IMG/VR virus record: IMGVR_UViG_2703718798_000018
From: a virus
Lineage: Duplodnaviria > Heunggongvirae > Uroviricota > Caudoviricetes
Length of the DNA: 5,916 nt
Strand: one strand, 5' to 3'
Part shown: one piece after another, positions 1-5,916 of the stretch
Layout: every line of letters starts with the position of its first letter
Position numbering within the stretch: the stretch's first letter is position 1
Program-made: the position numbers and the translations under genes
Notes under the pieces: model-generated
What the model saw: the letters and a program-made list of their open reading frames with translations, nothing else
What the model was told of the DNA's origin: nothing
Database searches by the model: none

Positions 1-252
1 TTACCATATTTCGTCACCCGCAGGGGTGGATTTACCCCAGACATCCTGCTCGCTAAGTTCCGCGGCGTTCATGTCACACTGTGCCAGCAGTTCATCAAGC
101 GAGTAGCGCCTGGAGATGGGTGTCAGAATCAGTTGGTTGTTGCTCACCTGCGCTTCCACGCTCTGCCCCGGCTGTAAGTTAAGTTCTTTCATTACGATAT
201 TGGGAATGACCATACCTGCACTGTTCCCCCATCTTTTTATGGTAATACGCAT
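1..252 (-). CDS. chpS: ChpS (ChpBI) antitoxin of the chpSB toxin-antitoxin pair, MazE-like; complete, stop codon at 1-3
   Basis: Translation from the ATG at 252 (MRITIKRWGNSAGMVIPNIVMKELNLQPGQ...DEIW, 83 aa) matches my recollection of E. coli K-12 ChpS essentially residue for residue. AAGGAG sits 6 nt upstream on the minus strand. The ORF track's 85-aa form starts at an upstream GTG (258). Not alignment-verified. Confidence 0.85.
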   Translation of the reverse strand: MRITIKRWGNSAGMVIPNIVMKELNLQPGQSVEAQVSNNQLILTPISRRYSLDELLAQCDMNAAELSEQDVWGKSTPAGDEIW

Positions 253-261
253 CTGCACCTC

Positions 262-290
262 CTTAAGTTATACAAAGTATAACTCACGGT
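262..290 (-). promoter_or_regulatory. Candidate chpSB promoter/operator: palindrome TTATACAAAGTATAA (268-282) just upstream of the chpS RBS
   Basis: Inverted repeat TTATAC-AAA-GTATAA read directly from the sequence. TA operons are typically autoregulated through palindromic operators overlapping the promoter. No experimental evidence here. Confidence 0.4.
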
Positions 291-425
291 GCTACAGGAA
301 ACGTTTTACCCCTGCGCATTTGTGAATGCCAGCAGAGTTTTTTATGCGTTAATAGATATGGAAAGCGGCTCGGAGAGAAAAGCAAAAGGTGAGGGAATTA
401 CAAAACAGAATGCGAGTCGTCTCGC

Positions 426-451
426 AAAAAACAACGCCACCCGAAGGTGGC
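426..451 (-). terminator. Candidate rho-independent terminator on the minus strand, ending either the int transcript or a host gene upstream of chpS
   Basis: Minus-strand read: GCCACC-UUCG-GGUGGC (6-bp GC-rich stem, UUCG loop; plus coords 436-451) followed by GUUGUUUUUU (426-435). A second small hairpin GCGAG-TCGT-CTCGC lies at 412-425. Confidence 0.4.
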
Positions 452-455
452 ATAA

Positions 456-490
456 GGGGGTAGCGCGTATCGCTATCCCCCTTTATATAT
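456..490 (+). other. Imperfect 10-bp GC-rich hairpin (GGGGGTAGCG / CGCTA(T)CCCCC, one bulge) followed by TTTATATAT; possible att-junction or terminator-like element
   Basis: Pairing checked base by base (456-465 with 471-481, T476 bulged). Function not assignable from sequence alone. Confidence 0.25.
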
Positions 491-541
491 CAAATAGTTA
501 CGAGTTCAAAGTAGTTCGGAATAGTGCCATTTAGTCCCCGT

Positions 542-1537
542 TTATGGGCAAAATCTGGACAACTCCGCAACCGGATTGAACCTTACCGCGTCCTGGAGAT
601 AATCAGGTGCAAAGTGCGCATAGGTCATTGTCTGCTGAATTGTGCTGTGCCCTAAAATACGCTGAAGGGTAATAATGTTCCCTCCATTTATCATGAAATG
701 AGTTGCGAATGTGTGCCGTAAAACATGCACAGACTGACCGACTGGTAAATCAGGCCGCACAGTCCTTATTGCACTTCTGACTATCGCATAACTGGGGTTC
801 ATTAATCTTCCCGTCGCTTTGACTTTAATCAGAGATTCAAGATCTTTAGCTATAGGAATAACCCGCCGCGATCCATTCTTTGTCTCCATGAAAATAACCT
901 TCCCACCAATTATGTGTTCACCTTTAATATTGGCAACTTCACCCCAGCGCCCGCCTGTAGCCAGGCTTAACAATACAGCCTTAAGATTATCGCCAGATAA
1001 AAGTGCGGTTAGCCTGGGAATATCATCATGTGCAAGATAAGCCATTTCCGGCTGATTAATTGTTAGCTTGCGTATCTCGTGAAACGGGTTATCACCCACA
1101 AACTCTTCAACATCAATCAGCTTTTCAAAGAAACCGCTCATCATTGCACAATAACGATTTACCGTTGACTGCTTAATTCCGCGATTCATTAATTCAAGGC
1201 GATATCTGATAATATTTTTTCGGGTTAAGTGGTCACTTCTGTTAATACCAAGCTCTTGCATATCACGAAGAACCGCTTCAATTCTGACCCGATTCATCGC
1301 GCCATAACGATGATTCTTACCGTGGTACACCCACCACAGTTCCAGAAGATCGCTTAACGCTTTACGTTCAATAGGTTTTTCGACCCAGTCCTTATCGTGA
1401 TAATGCGTCAGAACATGGCGTTCATACATCGCCGCTTCACCACGGGTAGGAAATCGCCGCCGAAATCTTCTTCCTTCAGATCCAGCAGGCCGCACGTCCA
1501 CACAGTATTTGCCATCAGCGAGCTTCTTAATCGACAT
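542..1537 (-). CDS. int: Tyrosine site-specific integrase, P2 Int family (331 aa)
   Basis: N-terminus MSIKKLADGKYCVDVRPAGSEGRRFRRRF and C-terminus HVLRHTFATHFMINGGNIITLQRILGHSTIQQTMTYAHFAPDYLQDA closely resemble P2 Int as I recall it, including the R/H/R/Y catalytic region. Start chosen at the ATG at 1537 with a G-rich RBS; the ORF track's start at 1573 adds 12 residues with no homology support. Confidence 0.9.
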   Translation of the reverse strand: MSIKKLADGKYCVDVRPAGSEGRRFRRRFPTRGEAAMYERHVLTHYHDKDWVEKPIERKALSDLLELWWVYHGKNHRYGAMNRVRIEAVLRDMQELGINRSDHLTRKNIIRYRLELMNRGIKQSTVNRYCAMMSGFFEKLIDVEEFVGDNPFHEIRKLTINQPEMAYLAHDDIPRLTALLSGDNLKAVLLSLATGGRWGEVANIKGEHIIGGKVIFMETKNGSRRVIPIAKDLESLIKVKATGRLMNPSYAIVRSAIRTVRPDLPVGQSVHVLRHTFATHFMINGGNIITLQRILGHSTIQQTMTYAHFAPDYLQDAVRFNPVAELSRFCP

Positions 1538-1603
1538 AAGGAAGCCCCCCAATGAAAACATCATCTTGATCACAATTTTGAGAAATAAAGGCCAGATGGA
1601 CCG

Positions 1604-1903
1604 TTAACCAGTCTTCTTGCCGGAGTGGGATGATTCCGCTTCGCTTTGCCCAATGTGTGCGAGAGCCGGTACCACCTGCCCGGCCTTTGGTTCGACCTCA
1701 TCGAACAAAAACCAGTCACGGTATTTACGGAAACGAGCGTGCCGCAAAAGAAGGATCCCAAAATCAAGAGGCATCTTAGATTTCCCACTTTCATAGCCAT
1801 GATATGTATAGTAATTAATTCCAATTAAATCAGATAGTTCCTTCATTTTCATCCGTTCGGACTCTCTGATAAGTTTTAATTTCTCATTTTGCGGTATTGA
1901 CAT
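1604..1903 (-). CDS. C: Immunity repressor, P2 C-type (99 aa)
   Basis: Translation from the ATG at 1903 is 99 aa, the same length as P2 C. The C-terminal VPALAHIGQSEAESSHSGKKTG resembles the P2 C tail as I recall it. GGAGG lies 11 nt upstream on the minus strand. Position (upstream of int, same strand, divergent from cox) fits P2. Confidence 0.8.
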   Translation of the reverse strand: MSIPQNEKLKLIRESERMKMKELSDLIGINYYTYHGYESGKSKMPLDFGILLLRHARFRKYRDWFLFDEVEPKAGQVVPALAHIGQSEAESSHSGKKTG

Positions 1904-1932
1904 AATTTTTCTAACCTCCAATAATTTTTGTG
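1897..1932 (+). promoter_or_regulatory. Candidate early promoter Pe: -35 TTGACA (1897-1902), 17-nt spacer, -10 AATAAT (1920-1925)
   Basis: Hexamers read directly. The -35 is a perfect consensus and the -10 matches TATAAT at 5 of 6, with optimal spacing, and the orientation points into cox. The -35 overlaps the C start codon. The leftward C promoter could not be placed confidently. Confidence 0.5.
1902..1929. promoter_or_regulatory. Candidate repressor operator: perfect 9-bp direct repeat ATAATTTTT at 1902-1910 and 1921-1929 (19-bp period) bracketing the Pe spacer and -10
   Basis: Repeat read directly from the sequence. P2 C is known to bind directly repeated half-sites around the early promoter rather than a palindrome. 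Assigning these particular repeats as the operator is inference. Confidence 0.45.
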
Positions 1933-2010
1933 TATAGCAACACAAGAATAGTCGCAATTGGTTCTACATGGTCCCTATTCGAAAAAGGGGCCAATAACGG
2001 AGGATACCAG

Positions 2011-2749: not shown

Positions 2750-3088
2750 ATGACACAGCGACGCAACTTCCGCACTGGCACAGAACACCACGCTAACCGT
2801 TTCTCAACCAGCGCATCACGCAGCAACTCGCACTACAGCCTGCAGGAAACGCACGCCACACCTGACGGGCATCTGGTTAAACAAACCGGTAAACACACCT
2901 GGCTGATTAATGATGCCGGAATTGTCATACACAGAGGCGCACGCAACCCGATTACCGGAAATACCTGTTACTCCCTGACTCGCGGAGATGAGCAGTTCGG
3001 GCAGGATTTCACCCTGCACGAAGCATTAAGAACGGCAGACCGATTAATCAGCGGTCGCAGTTTTCAGCACCCGGAACATCGCCGCTGA
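2750..3088 (+). CDS. Hypothetical early protein (112 aa); start uncertain
   Basis: Only in-frame ATG; the RBS is weak and the N-terminal 40 residues are low-complexity (S/T/R/H-rich). The C-terminal two thirds look more protein-like. Confidence 0.45.
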   Translation: MTQRRNFRTGTEHHANRFSTSASRSNSHYSLQETHATPDGHLVKQTGKHTWLINDAGIVIHRGARNPITGNTCYSLTRGDEQFGQDFTLHEALRTADRLISGRSFQHPEHRR

Positions 3089-3107
3089 TAAATAAAAGGA
3101 TTCAGCC

Positions 3108-3350
3108 ATGATCGAAGCCTACAAAATACTTATTAATAATGCGTTGCAGCGTTATCACTTCGAACTCGCAAACCGGGGTGTAACCCGGGACGAAGGACTT
3201 CGTAACTCACTGCGGGGCGCAATTATGGGACTGTATAACTGCGCACTGGGCAGCGATGACCGCGAAGCACTGGAAGAATTAAAAGTTATTGTGGCCGAAC
3301 TGTTTGAAGGTGAAATCGTTGAGCCTTATTTCACAGAGGTAGCAGCATGA
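3108..3350 (+). CDS. Hypothetical early protein (80 aa)
   Basis: ATG with an AAAGGA RBS; its stop overlaps the next start in an ATGA arrangement. Confidence 0.6.
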   Translation: MIEAYKILINNALQRYHFELANRGVTRDEGLRNSLRGAIMGLYNCALGSDDREALEELKVIVAELFEGEIVEPYFTEVAA

Positions 3351-4328: not shown

Positions 4329-4883
4329 ATGAGACTTACACCAATGGGAACGCCAAGCAAAGCTCCGGCACATGTAAAGCCGTGGACACAACAGGAAGAT
4401 CGGTTACTCATCTCGCTTTATCAGGAACACAACACACATCAGTTCGCCGAACGAATTCAGCGAACCCGTAAAGCAGTTATGCACCGGATTCGTTTTTTAC
4501 GTAATCGTGGGCTGATTGGCCGCAAGAGAAAAGCACCACTGAGTACAGAAGTCATAGCCTTTCTTATTAAAAACCGTCATGTAAAAACCGCACAGGAAAT
4601 GGCTCTGGAAGCGGGATGCAGTGAGTGCACAGTGAGGTACACACTGCGTAAACGGGGTTACAACCTGCAAAAATGCGGTGAGAACCACCATTGCGCCAGA
4701 TACAGCGATCATCTGGTTGAGCTGGTCACGGAGCTACGCGACATACACAACATGACGTTCTGCATGATCGCTGAACACATCAACAGCACGACACAAATGC
4801 ACATTAACGACGATACGGCGTTTCATCTCTACCACCGCCGCACCGCAACTGACGCAGTGCTCCGTGAACTGTTACCGGGCTGA
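4329..4883 (+). CDS. Hypothetical protein (184 aa) with a basic helix-rich N-terminal half and a Cys/His cluster; putative DNA-binding regulator
   Basis: GGAGG sits 8 nt upstream of the ATG. The sequence contains C-x2-C, then 15 residues, then C-x5-C (CSEC...CGENHHC). The DNA-binding assignment is based on composition and motif only. Confidence 0.65.
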   Translation: MRLTPMGTPSKAPAHVKPWTQQEDRLLISLYQEHNTHQFAERIQRTRKAVMHRIRFLRNRGLIGRKRKAPLSTEVIAFLIKNRHVKTAQEMALEAGCSECTVRYTLRKRGYNLQKCGENHHCARYSDHLVELVTELRDIHNMTFCMIAEHINSTTQMHINDDTAFHLYHRRTATDAVLRELLPG

Positions 4884-5003
4884 GTGATCATCATGCACAC
4901 ACAAAAAAACCGCTTGCCAGCGTTCGCCTGGTCGGGTTACAGTTTTCCCGCACCTCATAAAACGGGTGCCGGGATTTCCACCCCGCCGATAACCAAAGCG
5001 CAC

Positions 5004-5024
5004 AACCGCGCCAGCGGTTTTTTT
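5004..5024 (+). terminator. Candidate intrinsic terminator ending the cox-side operon
   Basis: AACCGC-GCCA-GCGGTT hairpin (6 bp, 4-nt loop) immediately followed by a run of 7 T (5018-5024), about 120 nt downstream of the 184-aa ORF stop. Confidence 0.5.
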
Positions 5025-5065
5025 GTGCGTACTGTATTGCCACGTCTTTTTCGCGTCAGAATTAT

Positions 5066-5141
5066 GGCGGGGCGTACGGGGCCGACTTCGGTCGGGCCGG
5101 GTTCTTTGGTTACCGGTTGTGGAAACCCTGTACGCCTCGCC
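5066..5141 (+). ncRNA. Candidate structured RNA element (about 76 nt): 16-bp closing helix with two G-U wobbles, enclosing a UUCG-capped hairpin and a second short hairpin
   Basis: 5066-5081 (GGCGGGGCGTACGGGG) pairs with 5126-5141 (CCCTGTACGCCTCGCC): 14 Watson-Crick pairs plus 2 G-U, possible only in a plus-strand transcript. Inside are CCGAC-UUCG-GUCGG (5082-5095) and CCGG-N12-CCGG (5097-5116). A possible promoter TTGCCA (5037-5042), 17-nt spacer, AATTAT (5060-5065) lies just upstream. Neither reading frame across it looks protein-like. Prediction only. Confidence 0.3.
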
Positions 5142-5167
5142 ACCCCGAGTTTTCCACCTCTGGATGG

Positions 5168-5184
5168 TGAGTTTTCAAAATTCA
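5168..5184. promoter_or_regulatory. Near-palindrome TGAGTTTTCAAAATTCA upstream of the 75-aa gene; candidate operator or promoter element
   Basis: 8-bp arms with one mismatch around a central C. GAGTTTTC also occurs as a direct repeat at 5147-5154 and 5170-5177. It sits 20-35 nt upstream of the AAGAGG RBS of the ORF at 5204. Confidence 0.3.
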
Positions 5185-5203
5185 CAACCAAAGAGGCCAC
5201 ACC

Positions 5204-5431
5204 ATGGCAAACCGCAAACAACAGCGCGCCCGCGCTGAGCGTCTTCACATCCGGACTGAAATCAACCGCAGACTCCATCGGGCTGCATCTGTCTCCTTCA
5301 TCATGCAGTCAAACGTATTACACCGACTTAACGACGGTATCGCTGCCGGGTATTACGCGGCAGTCTTCAGCTATCTGGCCGAAGACCTGGCAGAACTGCA
5401 AGACCTTATCAACCAGCAACACCACCACTAA
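5204..5431 (+). CDS. Hypothetical small protein (75 aa) with a highly basic N-terminus and an acidic C-terminus ending QQHHH
   Basis: ATG with AAGAGG 7 nt upstream; the N-terminus MANRKQQRARAERLHIRTEINRRLHR is strongly basic (possible nucleic-acid binding). Confidence 0.55.
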   Translation: MANRKQQRARAERLHIRTEINRRLHRAASVSFIMQSNVLHRLNDGIAAGYYAAVFSYLAEDLAELQDLINQQHHH

Positions 5432-5499
5432 ACAACATCCTGAAGCCATCCCGCACCCGTGCGCGGGAGGCTTCCGCACGTCTGTTACCGGAGGTTCTC

Positions 5500-5916
5500 A
5501 TGAAGAACGTTAAGGGACTTTCAGATATTCAGGATTTTTTTAACTGGATGTGGGCAGTGGATCCCCGGCTGGCTTCCCGCCTGAACGACTGGCACGACTA
5601 TTACCGCCGCGCCTGTAAACGGGCCGCCAGACGCGTCACCACATACGGGGATTTCTCCTTCACCGTTGACGACCGTTACCGCGTGGACGTGAAAGGTGAT
5701 GGTGATGGTTTTGGTTTATTTCACATCAACGGAACCGACAGCACCGCCATCAGCTGGTCGTCGTCAGAGATGACGCTTGTTCTGGAAATGACAACGCACA
5801 GCGTGGCCATGAAAGGCATATACACCGCAGAAGACTTTATCGGTGAATACCAGCGCCTTCTCGTGCTGTACCGCGCGGCGTTTCAGGCGGCAACTGCCGG
5901 GGAGTGCGACGCATGA
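5500..5916 (+). CDS. Hypothetical protein (138 aa); complete, stop at 5914-5916
   Basis: ATG with GGAGG 7 nt upstream; no motif recognised. Confidence 0.6.
   Translation: MKNVKGLSDIQDFFNWMWAVDPRLASRLNDWHDYYRRACKRAARRVTTYGDFSFTVDDRYRVDVKGDGDGFGLFHINGTDSTAISWSSSEMTLVLEMTTHSVAMKGIYTAEDFIGEYQRLLVLYRAAFQAATAGECDA

Follow-up and report, generated by a model that had tools for sequence, protein, structure and literature searches.

The flagged stretch at positions 4884-5203 of the window (the whole 5,916-nt stretch of viral DNA that was analysed) encodes an RNA of the known C4/CI antisense "immunity" family of phages P1 and P4, together with its partner, an isrK/seqA RNA. This cassette guards an anti-repressor gene, and the element that hosts it is a P2-family prophage of E. 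coli. Taken as a whole, the arrangement is very probably a P4/P1-type RNA immunity cassette, located within the early operon of a prophage that is P88-like (Xuanwuvirus, P2 family). No new RNA is involved, as the family, the fold, the target logic and the overlapping long ORF all have direct precedents in P1, P4 and Gifsy-1.

The initial annotation had proposed a plus-strand structured RNA in a P2-family prophage, and the Rfam matches, fold and covariation described below bear this out. Its three suggestions for function, namely a regulatory sRNA, a decoy or a cis-acting leader, each touch on the truth, and it rightly placed the action on the downstream gene unit. It had also set retrons aside, and indeed no Pfam reverse-transcriptase match occurs among the ten main ORFs of the window, and the neighbouring genes in relatives encode a derepression protein, a hypothetical protein and a replication endonuclease. 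The description as a GC-rich island holds only in a mild form: the stretch is enriched (55.3% GC versus 48.6% for the window), but 31 of 280 segments of that size have at least as much GC; the C4 core by itself reaches 66.7%.

The cassette is ordinary, known and mostly unannotated. Of 5426 complete E. coli genomes, 1158 contain it (identity of at least 80%). The sampled records listed give no annotation for it, and other records examined show it as an 'ash family protein' pseudogene or as a hypothetical protein on the minus strand. The practical value of the present analysis is the annotation of the cassette, whose parts are as follows.

4884-5513, plus strand: 209-aa open frame (GTG at 4884, ATG at 4893), analogous to P4 eta
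4914-4943, plus strand: sigma-70-like promoter TTGCCA-18-TACAGT inside the long ORF, predicted start near 4950
4950-5024, plus strand: isrK/seqA-like RNA comprising two hairpins, an unpaired segment and an intrinsic terminator; bears the a1 and b1 boxes
5004-5024, plus strand: intrinsic terminator of isrK (stem 5004-5019 plus T run), which is the 3' hairpin of the isrK model
5065-5142, plus strand: core of the C4/CI-type antisense RNA: closing helix of 17 bp, UUCG-capped hairpin, and second hairpin whose 12-nt loop holds b'
5204-5431, plus strand: gene for a putative 75-aa epsilon-like anti-repressor ('derepression protein'), homologue of P4 epsilon
5500-5916, plus strand: 138-aa ORF (phrog_3237), the next gene of the operon, followed in relatives by that for the replication endonuclease gpA

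The C4 and isrK RNAs

Although the initial annotation named no matching family, the Rfam search that it proposed for the region returns two. The C4 antisense RNA model (RF01695) aligns over its complete length (positions 1-87 of 87) with 5060-5147 on the plus strand, scoring 83.4 bits against a GA of 45 (E about 6e-16, more exactly 6.2e-16). The isrK model (RF01394) is likewise matched in full at 4950-5024 on the plus strand, with 64.3 bits against a GA of 50 (E 1.7e-12). Both RNAs therefore belong to these families by the thresholds of the models themselves. A third model, c4-a1b1 (RF03163, GA 46.7), finds no match in the window even at E values up to 10, the a1 and b1 boxes themselves being present; elsewhere it scores 44.1 in P4 and 47-57 in several relatives.

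The minimum free energy (MFE) fold of the C4 RNA agrees with the family consensus. Its closing helix pairs U5065 and G5066-G5081 with C5126-C5141 and A5142, which makes 17 bp where 16 had been counted earlier, and it includes the two G-U pairs already recognised (G5070-U5137 and G5078-U5129). These would be C-A mismatches on the minus strand, in line with the earlier argument that the two pairs are meaningful only as plus-strand RNA. Hairpin 1 (5082-5095, CCGAC-UUCG-GUCGG) and hairpin 2 (5096-5100 with 5113-5117, loop of 12 nt) complete the three-way junction with a UUCG-capped hairpin that was proposed from the start. The fold energy of -49.9 kcal/mol compares with -35.6 +/- 3.3 for 200 dinucleotide shuffles, none of which is as good (z -4.35); for the isrK fold z is -3.62.

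One structural proposal has to be dropped. An alternative hairpin at 5080-5098, which uses G5080 and G5081, had been offered as the basis of a switch-like fold, and we rejected it given a predicted pair probability of 0.002 and a cost of +4.5 kcal/mol. The true competitor of the C4 fold, as far as folding models indicate, is the a1/b1 region of isrK: in the predicted MFE structure of the read-through RNA 4950-5230, a1/b1 is paired in cis with a'/b' of C4.

Strong support for the C4 fold comes from comparative sequence analysis. We aligned 58 distinct relative sequences with MAFFT (alignment A1) and applied no covariance-model realignment, because a bias towards the structure was to be avoided. 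Across these sequences, 93.4% of cells are paired, versus 76.7% for shuffled data and at most 49% when the alignment is slid by one column, and the covariation score of 0.474 versus 0.175 is equalled by none of 500 shuffles. Double-sided changes occur in 13 of the 14 pairs of the outer closing helix and in four of the five pairs of hairpin 1, the latter having been partly pre-filtered for pairing and the former having passed through no such filter. In a few divergent sequences, a one-column register slip in A1 lowers the paired fraction of the outer helix to 87%, and 45 of the 58 sequences form all 17 of 17 ungapped closing-helix pairs. The compensatory changes for which the initial annotation had advised looking are thus plentiful, and the combination of a three-way junction with covariation support is that of the C4 family.

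Transcription of both RNAs probably begins at the promoter at 4914-4943, which we regard as the isrK/C4 promoter and the counterpart of PLE in P4. Its predicted start near 4950 coincides with the first base of the isrK model. In all 11 close relatives, the -35 element is invariant and the -10 reads TACAGT or TACATT, whereas the spacer sequence differs. Inspection by eye revealed no recognisable LexA box near this promoter. The terminator noted earlier at 5004-5024 is present, and the present analysis found it independently of the isrK model as well.

It had also been suggested that a promoter at 5037-5065 (TTGCCA-17-AATTAT) lies directly ahead of the helix. If so, C4 would be an independent primary transcript that acts in trans as an sRNA on host or other targets, a reading to which we assign a very small probability. 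The match to consensus is real (9 of 12 positions) and the AATTAT -10 is conserved. However, the -35 is altered in 7 of 10 close relatives that are near-identical in the rest of the flanking sequence, and AATTAT lies in a 5' flank that is conserved as part of the C4 model. Furthermore, a start about 7 nt downstream of the -10 would fall inside the covarying helix and therefore cut off much of its 5' strand. In Gifsy-1, moreover, where STnc1160 depends on the isrK promoter, the homologous RNA vanishes when that promoter is deleted (PMC4825925). For these reasons we rejected 5037-5065 as the start of C4.

Target boxes and the probable target gene

Like P1 c4 and P4 CI, the C4 RNA of the window has complements on both of its sides, and the downstream one falls on the ribosome-binding site of the first gene. 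Six boxes make up this system.

4975-4981, plus strand: a1, UUUCCAC, in the loop of isrK hairpin 2, complementary to a'
4990-4998, plus strand: b1, UAACCAAAG, in isrK, complementary to b'
5103-5112, plus strand: b', UCUUUGGUUA, in the loop of C4 hairpin 2
5119-5125, plus strand: a', GUGGAAA, in the single-stranded junction of C4
5151-5157, plus strand: a2, UUUCCAC, 9 nt past C4, complementary to a'
5186-5194, plus strand: b2, AACCAAAGA, overlapping the Shine-Dalgarno sequence AGAGG (5192-5196) of the epsilon-like gene, complementary to b'

Within the single window, the loop-target duplexes of 7-9 bp are modestly better than shuffles (p 0.003-0.08). Because these statistics are weak, the argument rests on a cross-locus analysis, in which complementarity between cognate and non-cognate boxes was compared at 58 loci by counting matches of at least 7 nt. 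For a', cognate matches are found with a1 in 97% of cases and with a2 in 91%, versus 8% and 5% for non-cognate pairs. For b', the corresponding values are 69% versus 8% with b1 and 79% versus 6% with b2. The geometry is also conserved, with a2 fixed at +8 to +12 in most loci and most b2 matches at +39 to +44. Among the 11 close relatives, sequence differences are almost confined to the six boxes, and these change in concert. Relative L001 shares the backbone but has a different b' (a' ACUGCGAA, b' GAUCUCUUGUAG).

The only additional 8-nt target match for C4 in the window lies at 1685-1692 on the minus strand, in the C repressor gene (1604-1957, minus strand). We considered the C repressor mRNA as an extra target and rejected it, as the match fails to co-vary in L001 and chance alone predicts about 0.2 matches of this kind. 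This failure likewise speaks against an independent C4 transcript with targets elsewhere.

Judging from sequence, the gene under control of the cassette is the 75-aa epsilon-like gene, to which homology assigns an anti-repressor role. Its product matches the Pfam family Derepression (PF25738) at 29.1 bits, above the GA of 27, and resembles P4 epsilon in BLASTP (36% identity over 50 aa, E 4e-9); the RefSeq name is 'derepression protein'. At other loci, the first gene past b2 usually encodes a protein of anti-repressor type (Rha, Bro-N, ORF6N or P22_AR_N) or one that is Kil/Icd-like. A search of NCBIfam with the 209-aa, 75-aa and 138-aa products gave nothing useful.

The Kil/Icd-like neighbours raise the question of whether C4 is the RNA antitoxin of a type I-like toxin-antitoxin pair, like c4/icd in P1 and CI/kil in P4. 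In many relatives, a 64-aa Kil/Icd-like protein is indeed encoded by the first gene past b2, the Kil-like ORFs of relatives having 63-65 aa. Against this, the window and its 12 closest relatives lack a Kil/Icd-like gene, and b2 stands directly before the epsilon-like gene. A kil of about 65 aa, whether as the C-terminus of the long ORF or as the first gene past CI, is absent from the window, where an epsilon-like ORF in a different frame is the first gene instead. An antitoxin role for this RNA is accordingly most improbable.

The 58 RNAs carry 32 types of a' and 47 types of b' in 55 combinations. The two boxes reassort freely, and identical a' or b' sequences precede epsilon-like, Kil/Icd-like and Rha-type genes. 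We might speculate that the two boxes constitute a combinatorial RNA 'address code' across kinds of mobile elements, with the eta-like frame of P88-like phages serving as a translation-dependent pass, although we consider this unlikely. If the address code were real, the C4 RNA or isrK decoy of one resident element could silence or unlock the anti-repressor of another, and a P4-like satellite, for example, could read or manipulate a P88-like helper. If the pass were real, a frame that is open across the whole epsilon gene would let lytic transcripts ignore the cassette.

The overlapping 209-aa frame

It was initially stated that the region has no convincing ORF, which is wrong. A 209-aa frame begins directly after the stop codon of the 184-aa gene upstream, extends across the promoter at 4914-4943, isrK, C4 and, out of frame, the epsilon-like gene, and ends 14 nt within the next ORF. 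From isrK to b2 it is free of stops in 40 of 58 relatives, compared with 2 and 7 relatives for the remaining two frames, and stop triplets in the variable boxes number 18, 16 and 2 by frame (binomial 8e-5). Through the epsilon gene, the frame has no stops in 13 of 13 cases, whereas the third frame has 1-5. As in P4, a long ORF thus starts upstream of the internal promoter, crosses both RNAs and is kept open.

Might the region be merely protein-coding, for an 'Ash family' or eta-like protein, with an incidental RNA fold? Besides the maintenance of the frame, this proposal can point to the PGAP label of the region ('ash family protein' pseudogene), to several PHROGs that match aa 7-121, and to a hit of Pfam Phage_ASH (PF10554) at aa 19-108. 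The Phage_ASH hit, however, is confined to the part over isrK and C4 and reaches 22.3 bits, below the GA of 26, and the protein models match just the stretch over the RNA genes. A coding function by itself also leaves unexplained the pair-preserving double substitutions of the closing helix and the co-variation of six boxes at a distance. Furthermore, the length of C4 among relatives (73-81 nt) does not change in multiples of three, and 18 of the 58 relatives have no open plus-strand frame at all. We therefore give this proposal almost no credence.

According to the initial annotation, a conserved ORF matching the 209-aa frame would refute the RNA. Such an ORF exists, yet the RNA stands. RNA genes and a translated frame that overlaps them occur together, as they do in P4 eta, whose mechanism has been summarised previously (PMC10111431).

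Mechanism and comparison with known systems

The most likely mechanism, on the present analysis, is of the P1/P4 type, in which a processed antisense RNA would prevent the anti-repressor gene from being translated and stop transcription from entering it. All steps beyond box complementarity and co-variation are inferred by homology with P1 c4, P4 CI and Gifsy-1 IsrK/STnc1160. Transcripts from the promoter at 4914-4943 would start near 4950 and give the isrK/seqA-like RNA, which would end at the terminator, and those that read through would be processed to a C4 RNA of about 77 nt, in keeping with the dependence of the homologous Gifsy-1 RNA on the isrK promoter (PMC4825925). In P1 and P4, the 5' end of the C4-type RNA is made by RNase P. 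The a' and b' boxes of C4 would then pair with a2 and b2 on RNA made from that promoter, keeping ribosomes from entering the epsilon-like gene, and the transcript, left untranslated, would be terminated. Since kil is absent between C4 and epsilon, unlike in P4, the termination step may differ.

In a lysogen, and upon homo-immune superinfection, the anti-repressor would consequently stay off, as would, probably, the genes that lie further along the same transcripts. Copies of the target in the isrK decoy could sequester C4 in cis or in trans and so tune or reverse the block. In contrast, transcripts from the upstream early promoter would be translated through the cassette in the eta-like frame, coupled to the upstream gene. 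This translation would suppress the terminator and the RNA folds, letting lytic transcription reach the replication gene.

A different outcome is suggested by the isrK - orf45/STnc1160 - anrP locus of Salmonella Gifsy-1 (Hershko-Shalev et al. 2016, PMC4825925). There, IsrK pairs with the downstream region, the tested outcome was activation of the anti-repressor, and constitutive STnc1160 left toxicity unreduced (PMC4825925). Given these findings, the plain reading that C4 represses is not proven to hold for every member. By analogy, the short isrK RNA might act in trans on the read-through transcript, opening an inactive fold and activating translation of the anti-repressor, and the C4 fold would then be mainly a structured target or leader. 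Such positive control has been demonstrated experimentally at that homologous locus, and the cis pairing of a1/b1 with a'/b' predicted for 4950-5230 resembles its 'structure A' (PMC4825925). However, b2 of the window lies on the Shine-Dalgarno sequence of the epsilon-like gene itself, with no orf45-type ORF between C4 and that gene, and the C4/CI RNA is a repressor in P1 and P4. Moreover, the complete C4 fold is conserved and covaries, which argues for a functional RNA in its own right. We rate positive control of this kind as a serious candidate with somewhat less than an even chance, and it is more a complement than an alternative to the P1/P4-type explanation.

The window shares with Gifsy-1 an isrK-family RNA with a presumably leaky terminator, a structured RNA after it that would likewise be processed, and then an anti-repressor gene, as well as the complementarity of isrK to the downstream RNA. 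They differ in that Gifsy-1 is lambdoid, that its orf45 is translationally coupled to anrP, where the window has no orf45-like ORF start between C4 and the epsilon-like gene, and that activation by isrK in trans is demonstrated there.

The immI region of phages P1 and P7 reportedly reads a1b1 - c4 RNA - a2b2 - icd - ant1/2, an order said to go back to Citron & Schuster (1990, 1992; both listed in PMC8546580). The two systems have in common the Rfam family, an antisense RNA, presumably processed in the window too, that is encoded in the operon under its control, a b2 box where ribosomes bind ahead of the next gene, an anti-repressor target, and box variation that would act as immunity specificity (compare P1 with P7). 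The window differs in its anti-repressor, which is a small epsilon-like protein in place of Ant1/2, in the lack of icd, and in its upstream target element, which is a terminated isrK-type RNA.

A close likeness in organisation is offered by P4, whose immunity region runs PLE - seqA - CI RNA/seqB - seqC - kil/eta - epsilon - alpha. Its experimentally studied CI RNA and seqA region match the same two Rfam models in the same order and orientation (60.8 bits for seqA against RF01394). Both elements have a long ORF that extends from upstream of the internal promoter over both RNAs, an epsilon homologue downstream with replication genes next, and two-box complementarity on both sides of the RNA. In P4, however, the long ORF has 214 aa with Kil as its C-terminus and ends at the epsilon start, whereas the frame in the window overlaps the epsilon-like gene out of frame, kil is missing and b2 sits on the Shine-Dalgarno sequence of the epsilon-like gene itself. 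The a' and b' sequences differ as well, and the 138-aa gene is unrelated to P4 orf151, to which no similarity was found. Finally, P4 is a satellite and the element of the window is a P2-family helper-type phage. The RNA immunity module and the epsilon-type anti-repressor of the satellite P4 are thus also present in a phage of the helper type, and this sharing is relevant to the induction of P88-like prophages and to helper-satellite cross-talk.

Identity and setting of the flagged stretch

The initial annotation singled out 4884-5203 as a candidate structured RNA that it could not match to a known family, but an Rfam scan returns two full-length matches far over their gathering scores. These are the C4 antisense RNA (RF01695) at 5060-5147 (plus strand; 83.4 bits, threshold 45, E 6e-16) and the seqA-like RNA isrK (RF01394) at 4950-5024 (plus strand; 64.3 bits, threshold 50). 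In the reference genome of the satellite phage P4, both models match in the identical order, with the CI RNA as the C4 match (74.9 bits), the seqA region giving isrK at 60.8 bits plus c4-a1b1 at 44.1 bits, and the epsilon gene immediately downstream. The 75-aa ORF that follows the flagged stretch in the window matches Pfam Derepression (29.1, threshold 27) and aligns with P4 epsilon (BLASTP, 36% identity over 50 aa, E 4e-9), similarity that marks it as a homologue of epsilon, an anti-repressor that binds the P2 C repressor (PMC2995052). Together, the Rfam matches, their P4 equivalents and the epsilon homologue identify the 'island' as a P4-type immunity cassette inside a helper-type phage.

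The window element is a P88 / Xuanwuvirus-type prophage of the P2 family in an E. coli chromosome, P88 itself being a mitomycin-inducible P2-like phage (PMC5285337). Its gene order is as follows.

Genes and frames of the window
1-258, minus: chpS antitoxin gene, in the E. coli chromosomal part of the window
542-1573, minus: integrase
1604-1957, minus: C-type HTH repressor
1930-2436: Cox
between Cox and the 184-aa gene: DUF4761, DUF4754 and several small ORFs
4329-4883: Myb/HTH DNA-binding protein, 184 aa, directly 5' of the flagged stretch
4884 (GTG) or 4893 (ATG) to 5513, plus: 209-aa frame that spans isrK, C4 and the epsilon-like gene in full
5204-5431: 'derepression protein', 75 aa, epsilon-like, after the flagged stretch
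5500-5916: 138-aa ORF, after the epsilon-like gene

In relatives, the replication endonuclease gpA comes next after the 138-aa ORF. The chromosomal neighbours of the prophage are chpS-chpB-ppa (window 1-541), and the integrase gene starts about 280 nt from chpS.

Fold, covariation and production of the C4 RNA

The helix, hairpin and terminator that had been noticed from the sequence are all present in the window. The closing helix (U5065/G5066-G5081 with C5126-C5141/A5142) comprises 17 bp, and its two G-U pairs (G5070-U5137 and G5078-U5129) make it meaningful only as plus-strand RNA. It encloses the UUCG hairpin at 5082-5095 (CCGAC-UUCG-GUCGG) and a second hairpin (5096-5100 with 5113-5117) with a 12-nt loop. 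The intrinsic terminator at 5004-5024 is likewise real. The C4 minimum free energy of -49.9 kcal/mol compares with -35.6 +/- 3.3 in shuffled sequences (z -4.35; equalled by 0 of 200). The description of the region as GC-rich suits the RNA core (66.7%), whereas the 320-nt stretch is only mildly enriched (55.3% versus 48.6%). The hairpin proposed to compete with the closing helix would form with a pair probability of 0.002 at a cost of 4.5 kcal/mol, and we do not retain it.

To collect relatives, viral contigs were scanned with a degenerate pattern and the matches filtered by structure, which gave 82 instances with 58 distinct C4 sequences, the window included. All 16 relatives tested reach the C4 gathering score; isrK is above threshold upstream in eight of them and c4-a1b1 is found in four, two of which also carry isrK. 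By tally, the closing helix retains 17 of 17 ungapped pairs in 45 of the 58 sequences despite widely differing strands. Aligned by plain MAFFT, the sequences show pairing in 93.4% of cells; shuffling lowers this to 76.7%, and a one-column shift of the partners to no more than 49%. Given that 13 of the 14 outer closing-helix pairs also show both-sided changes, and that the covariation score (0.474 versus 0.175) was matched by 0 of 500 shuffles, the helix passes the covariation check that the initial annotation had proposed.

The promoter placed by that annotation at 5037-5065 fares less well. Seven of 10 relatives have a changed -35 element, the '-10' belongs to the conserved flank at the 5' end of the C4 model, and an RNA begun at the usual distance of about 7 nt beyond it would be missing most of the covarying helix's 5' strand. 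All 11 close relatives keep the hexamers of a promoter-like site at 4914-4943 (TTGCCA-18-TACAGT), whereas its spacer varies in sequence, and transcription from it is predicted to start near 4950, where the isrK model begins. Deleting the isrK promoter in Gifsy-1 abolishes the homologous RNA, STnc1160 (PMC4825925). From this dependence and the conservation pattern, we infer that C4 would arise, as in P1 and P4, by processing of transcripts that read through the isrK terminator.

Target boxes and specificity

Two boxes exposed in C4 (a', b') each have one complement upstream in isrK (a1, b1) and another downstream of C4 (a2, b2).

Boxes of the cassette
4975-4981: a1, UUUCCAC, loop of the second isrK hairpin
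4990-4998: b1, UAACCAAAG, in isrK
5103-5112: b', UCUUUGGUUA, loop of hairpin 2
5119-5125: a', GUGGAAA, junction
5151-5157: a2, UUUCCAC, downstream of C4
5186-5194: b2, AACCAAAGA, overlapping the Shine-Dalgarno of the epsilon-like gene (AGAGG, 5192-5196; ATG at 5204)

Taken alone, the window duplexes outperform shuffled loops only by a modest margin (p 0.003-0.08), and the decisive support for these predicted targets is the comparison across loci. The boxes are diverse (32 a' types and 47 b' types over 58 loci), and we scored exact complements of at least 7 nt at cognate loci versus non-cognate pairs. Complementarity was found for a1 in 97% versus 8%, for a2 in 91% versus 5%, for b1 in 69% versus 8% and for b2 in 79% versus 6%. 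Box positions after C4 are mostly fixed (a2 at +8 to +12, b2 at +39 to +44). Among 11 close relatives, the six boxes change jointly and nearly all other cassette bases are conserved; such a pattern is the signature of a putative immunity-specificity determinant. The window cassette shares its layout with both P1 c4 (a1b1 / a'b' / a2b2) and P4 (seqA / seqB / seqC).

The a' and b' boxes reassort independently (55 combinations among the 58 distinct C4 loci), and identical boxes precede different gene classes (epsilon-like, Kil/Icd-like and Rha). Such sharing is a hint that prophages and satellites of different kinds may be cross-immune. Within the C repressor gene, the mRNA carries 8 nt that match the b' target core (AACCAAAG, 1685-1692, minus); the match stays unchanged in a C4-bearing relative (L001) whose b' differs, and so is probably due to chance.

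The first gene after b2 in other loci encodes Rha, Bro-N, ORF6N, P22_AR_N, Kil/Icd-like or epsilon-like proteins, which are mostly anti-repressor types. In two loci (L018, C4 at 1876-1963, and L119), that position is taken by a protein of 85 aa that matches a Tad2-like domain in Pfam (Thoeris anti-defence 2-like; 27.7 bits, threshold 25) and is not of anti-repressor type. A further C4-bearing contig (L003) also carries an unrelated HEARO RNA (RF02033, 106 bits) at 7332-7573.

The long frame and a proposed mechanism

The stretch had been called apparently non-coding, but this is not simply so, because the 209-aa frame is kept open in relatives. It starts directly after the upstream gene's stop and 5' of the internal promoter, uses a different frame from the epsilon-like gene and ends 14 nt inside the next ORF. 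By tally, 40 of 58 relatives have no stop in it over the length of the cassette, whereas the two remaining frames are open in 2 and 7. Stop triplets in the variable boxes number 18, 16 and 2 by frame (binomial 8e-5, for loci that are not independent). At epsilon-type loci, the long frame runs without a stop through the epsilon gene in 13 of 13, even with epsilon identities down to 64%, and the third frame has 1-5 stops. This suggests that the two form a maintained overlapping gene pair. By frame arithmetic, the downstream gene of Kil- and Rha-type relatives is in frame and constitutes the C-terminal part of the long ORF; the P4 counterpart is a 214-aa ORF (8168-8812) whose last 65 residues are Kil. 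Judged by this layout, the window has the eta/kil arrangement.

Protein-family matches to the 209-aa frame are confined to residues encoded over the RNA genes, Pfam Phage_ASH reaching a below-threshold 22.3 bits. The matched part is 4884-5246 (aa 7-121) in the window, 8138-8525 in L001 and 8168-8584 in P4. Labels over the RNA genes include Phage_ASH and the PGAP 'ash family protein' (pseudogene); the P4 RefSeq 'cI gene product / transcriptional repressor' CDS and PHROGs 995, 821, 6928 and 3960 ('transcriptional regulator/repressor') are also confined to the isrK/C4 part. Such labels look like translations of the RNA cassette or eta frame rather than evidence of a repressor protein. In P88, whose isrK and C4 lie at 3051-3125 and 3161-3248 (both plus), RefSeq places the hypothetical protein SF19_gp13 (3056-3244, minus) directly across the two RNAs, which is probably a spurious gene call.

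According to a summary of Forti et al. 1999 (PMC10111431), the transcript of the internal constitutive P4 promoter is quickly terminated through CI and seqA RNA interactions, and this termination is prevented when full-length eta is translated from an upstream promoter in coupling with the preceding gene. By analogy with P1, P4 and Gifsy-1, processed C4 would block translation of the epsilon-like gene, termination would follow, and isrK would act as a decoy. The only rival with real weight is that a Gifsy-1-type activating role of isrK is also at work here. A real alternative fold is predicted for the read-through RNA 4950-5230, whose minimum free energy structure pairs a1/b1 with a'/b' in cis, a counterpart of 'structure A', an inactive form that experiments on Gifsy-1 have shown. 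Translation of the eta-like frame would prevent termination, such that early-promoter transcripts of the prophage, translated through the cassette as for P4 eta, would reach the replication gene, and the 75-aa protein would serve as an anti-repressor.

At 80% identity or more, 1158 of 5426 complete E. coli genomes (RefSeq) contain the window cassette (4940-5203), with up to four isrK-C4 cassette copies per genome, and 11 of 12 sampled records list no annotation under the match. We found no description of three local details, namely the absence of kil, b2 lying directly on the epsilon Shine-Dalgarno and the long frame overlapping epsilon. This kind of cassette is already known, and existing models readily detect the window copy, which differs from that of P4 in being without kil.
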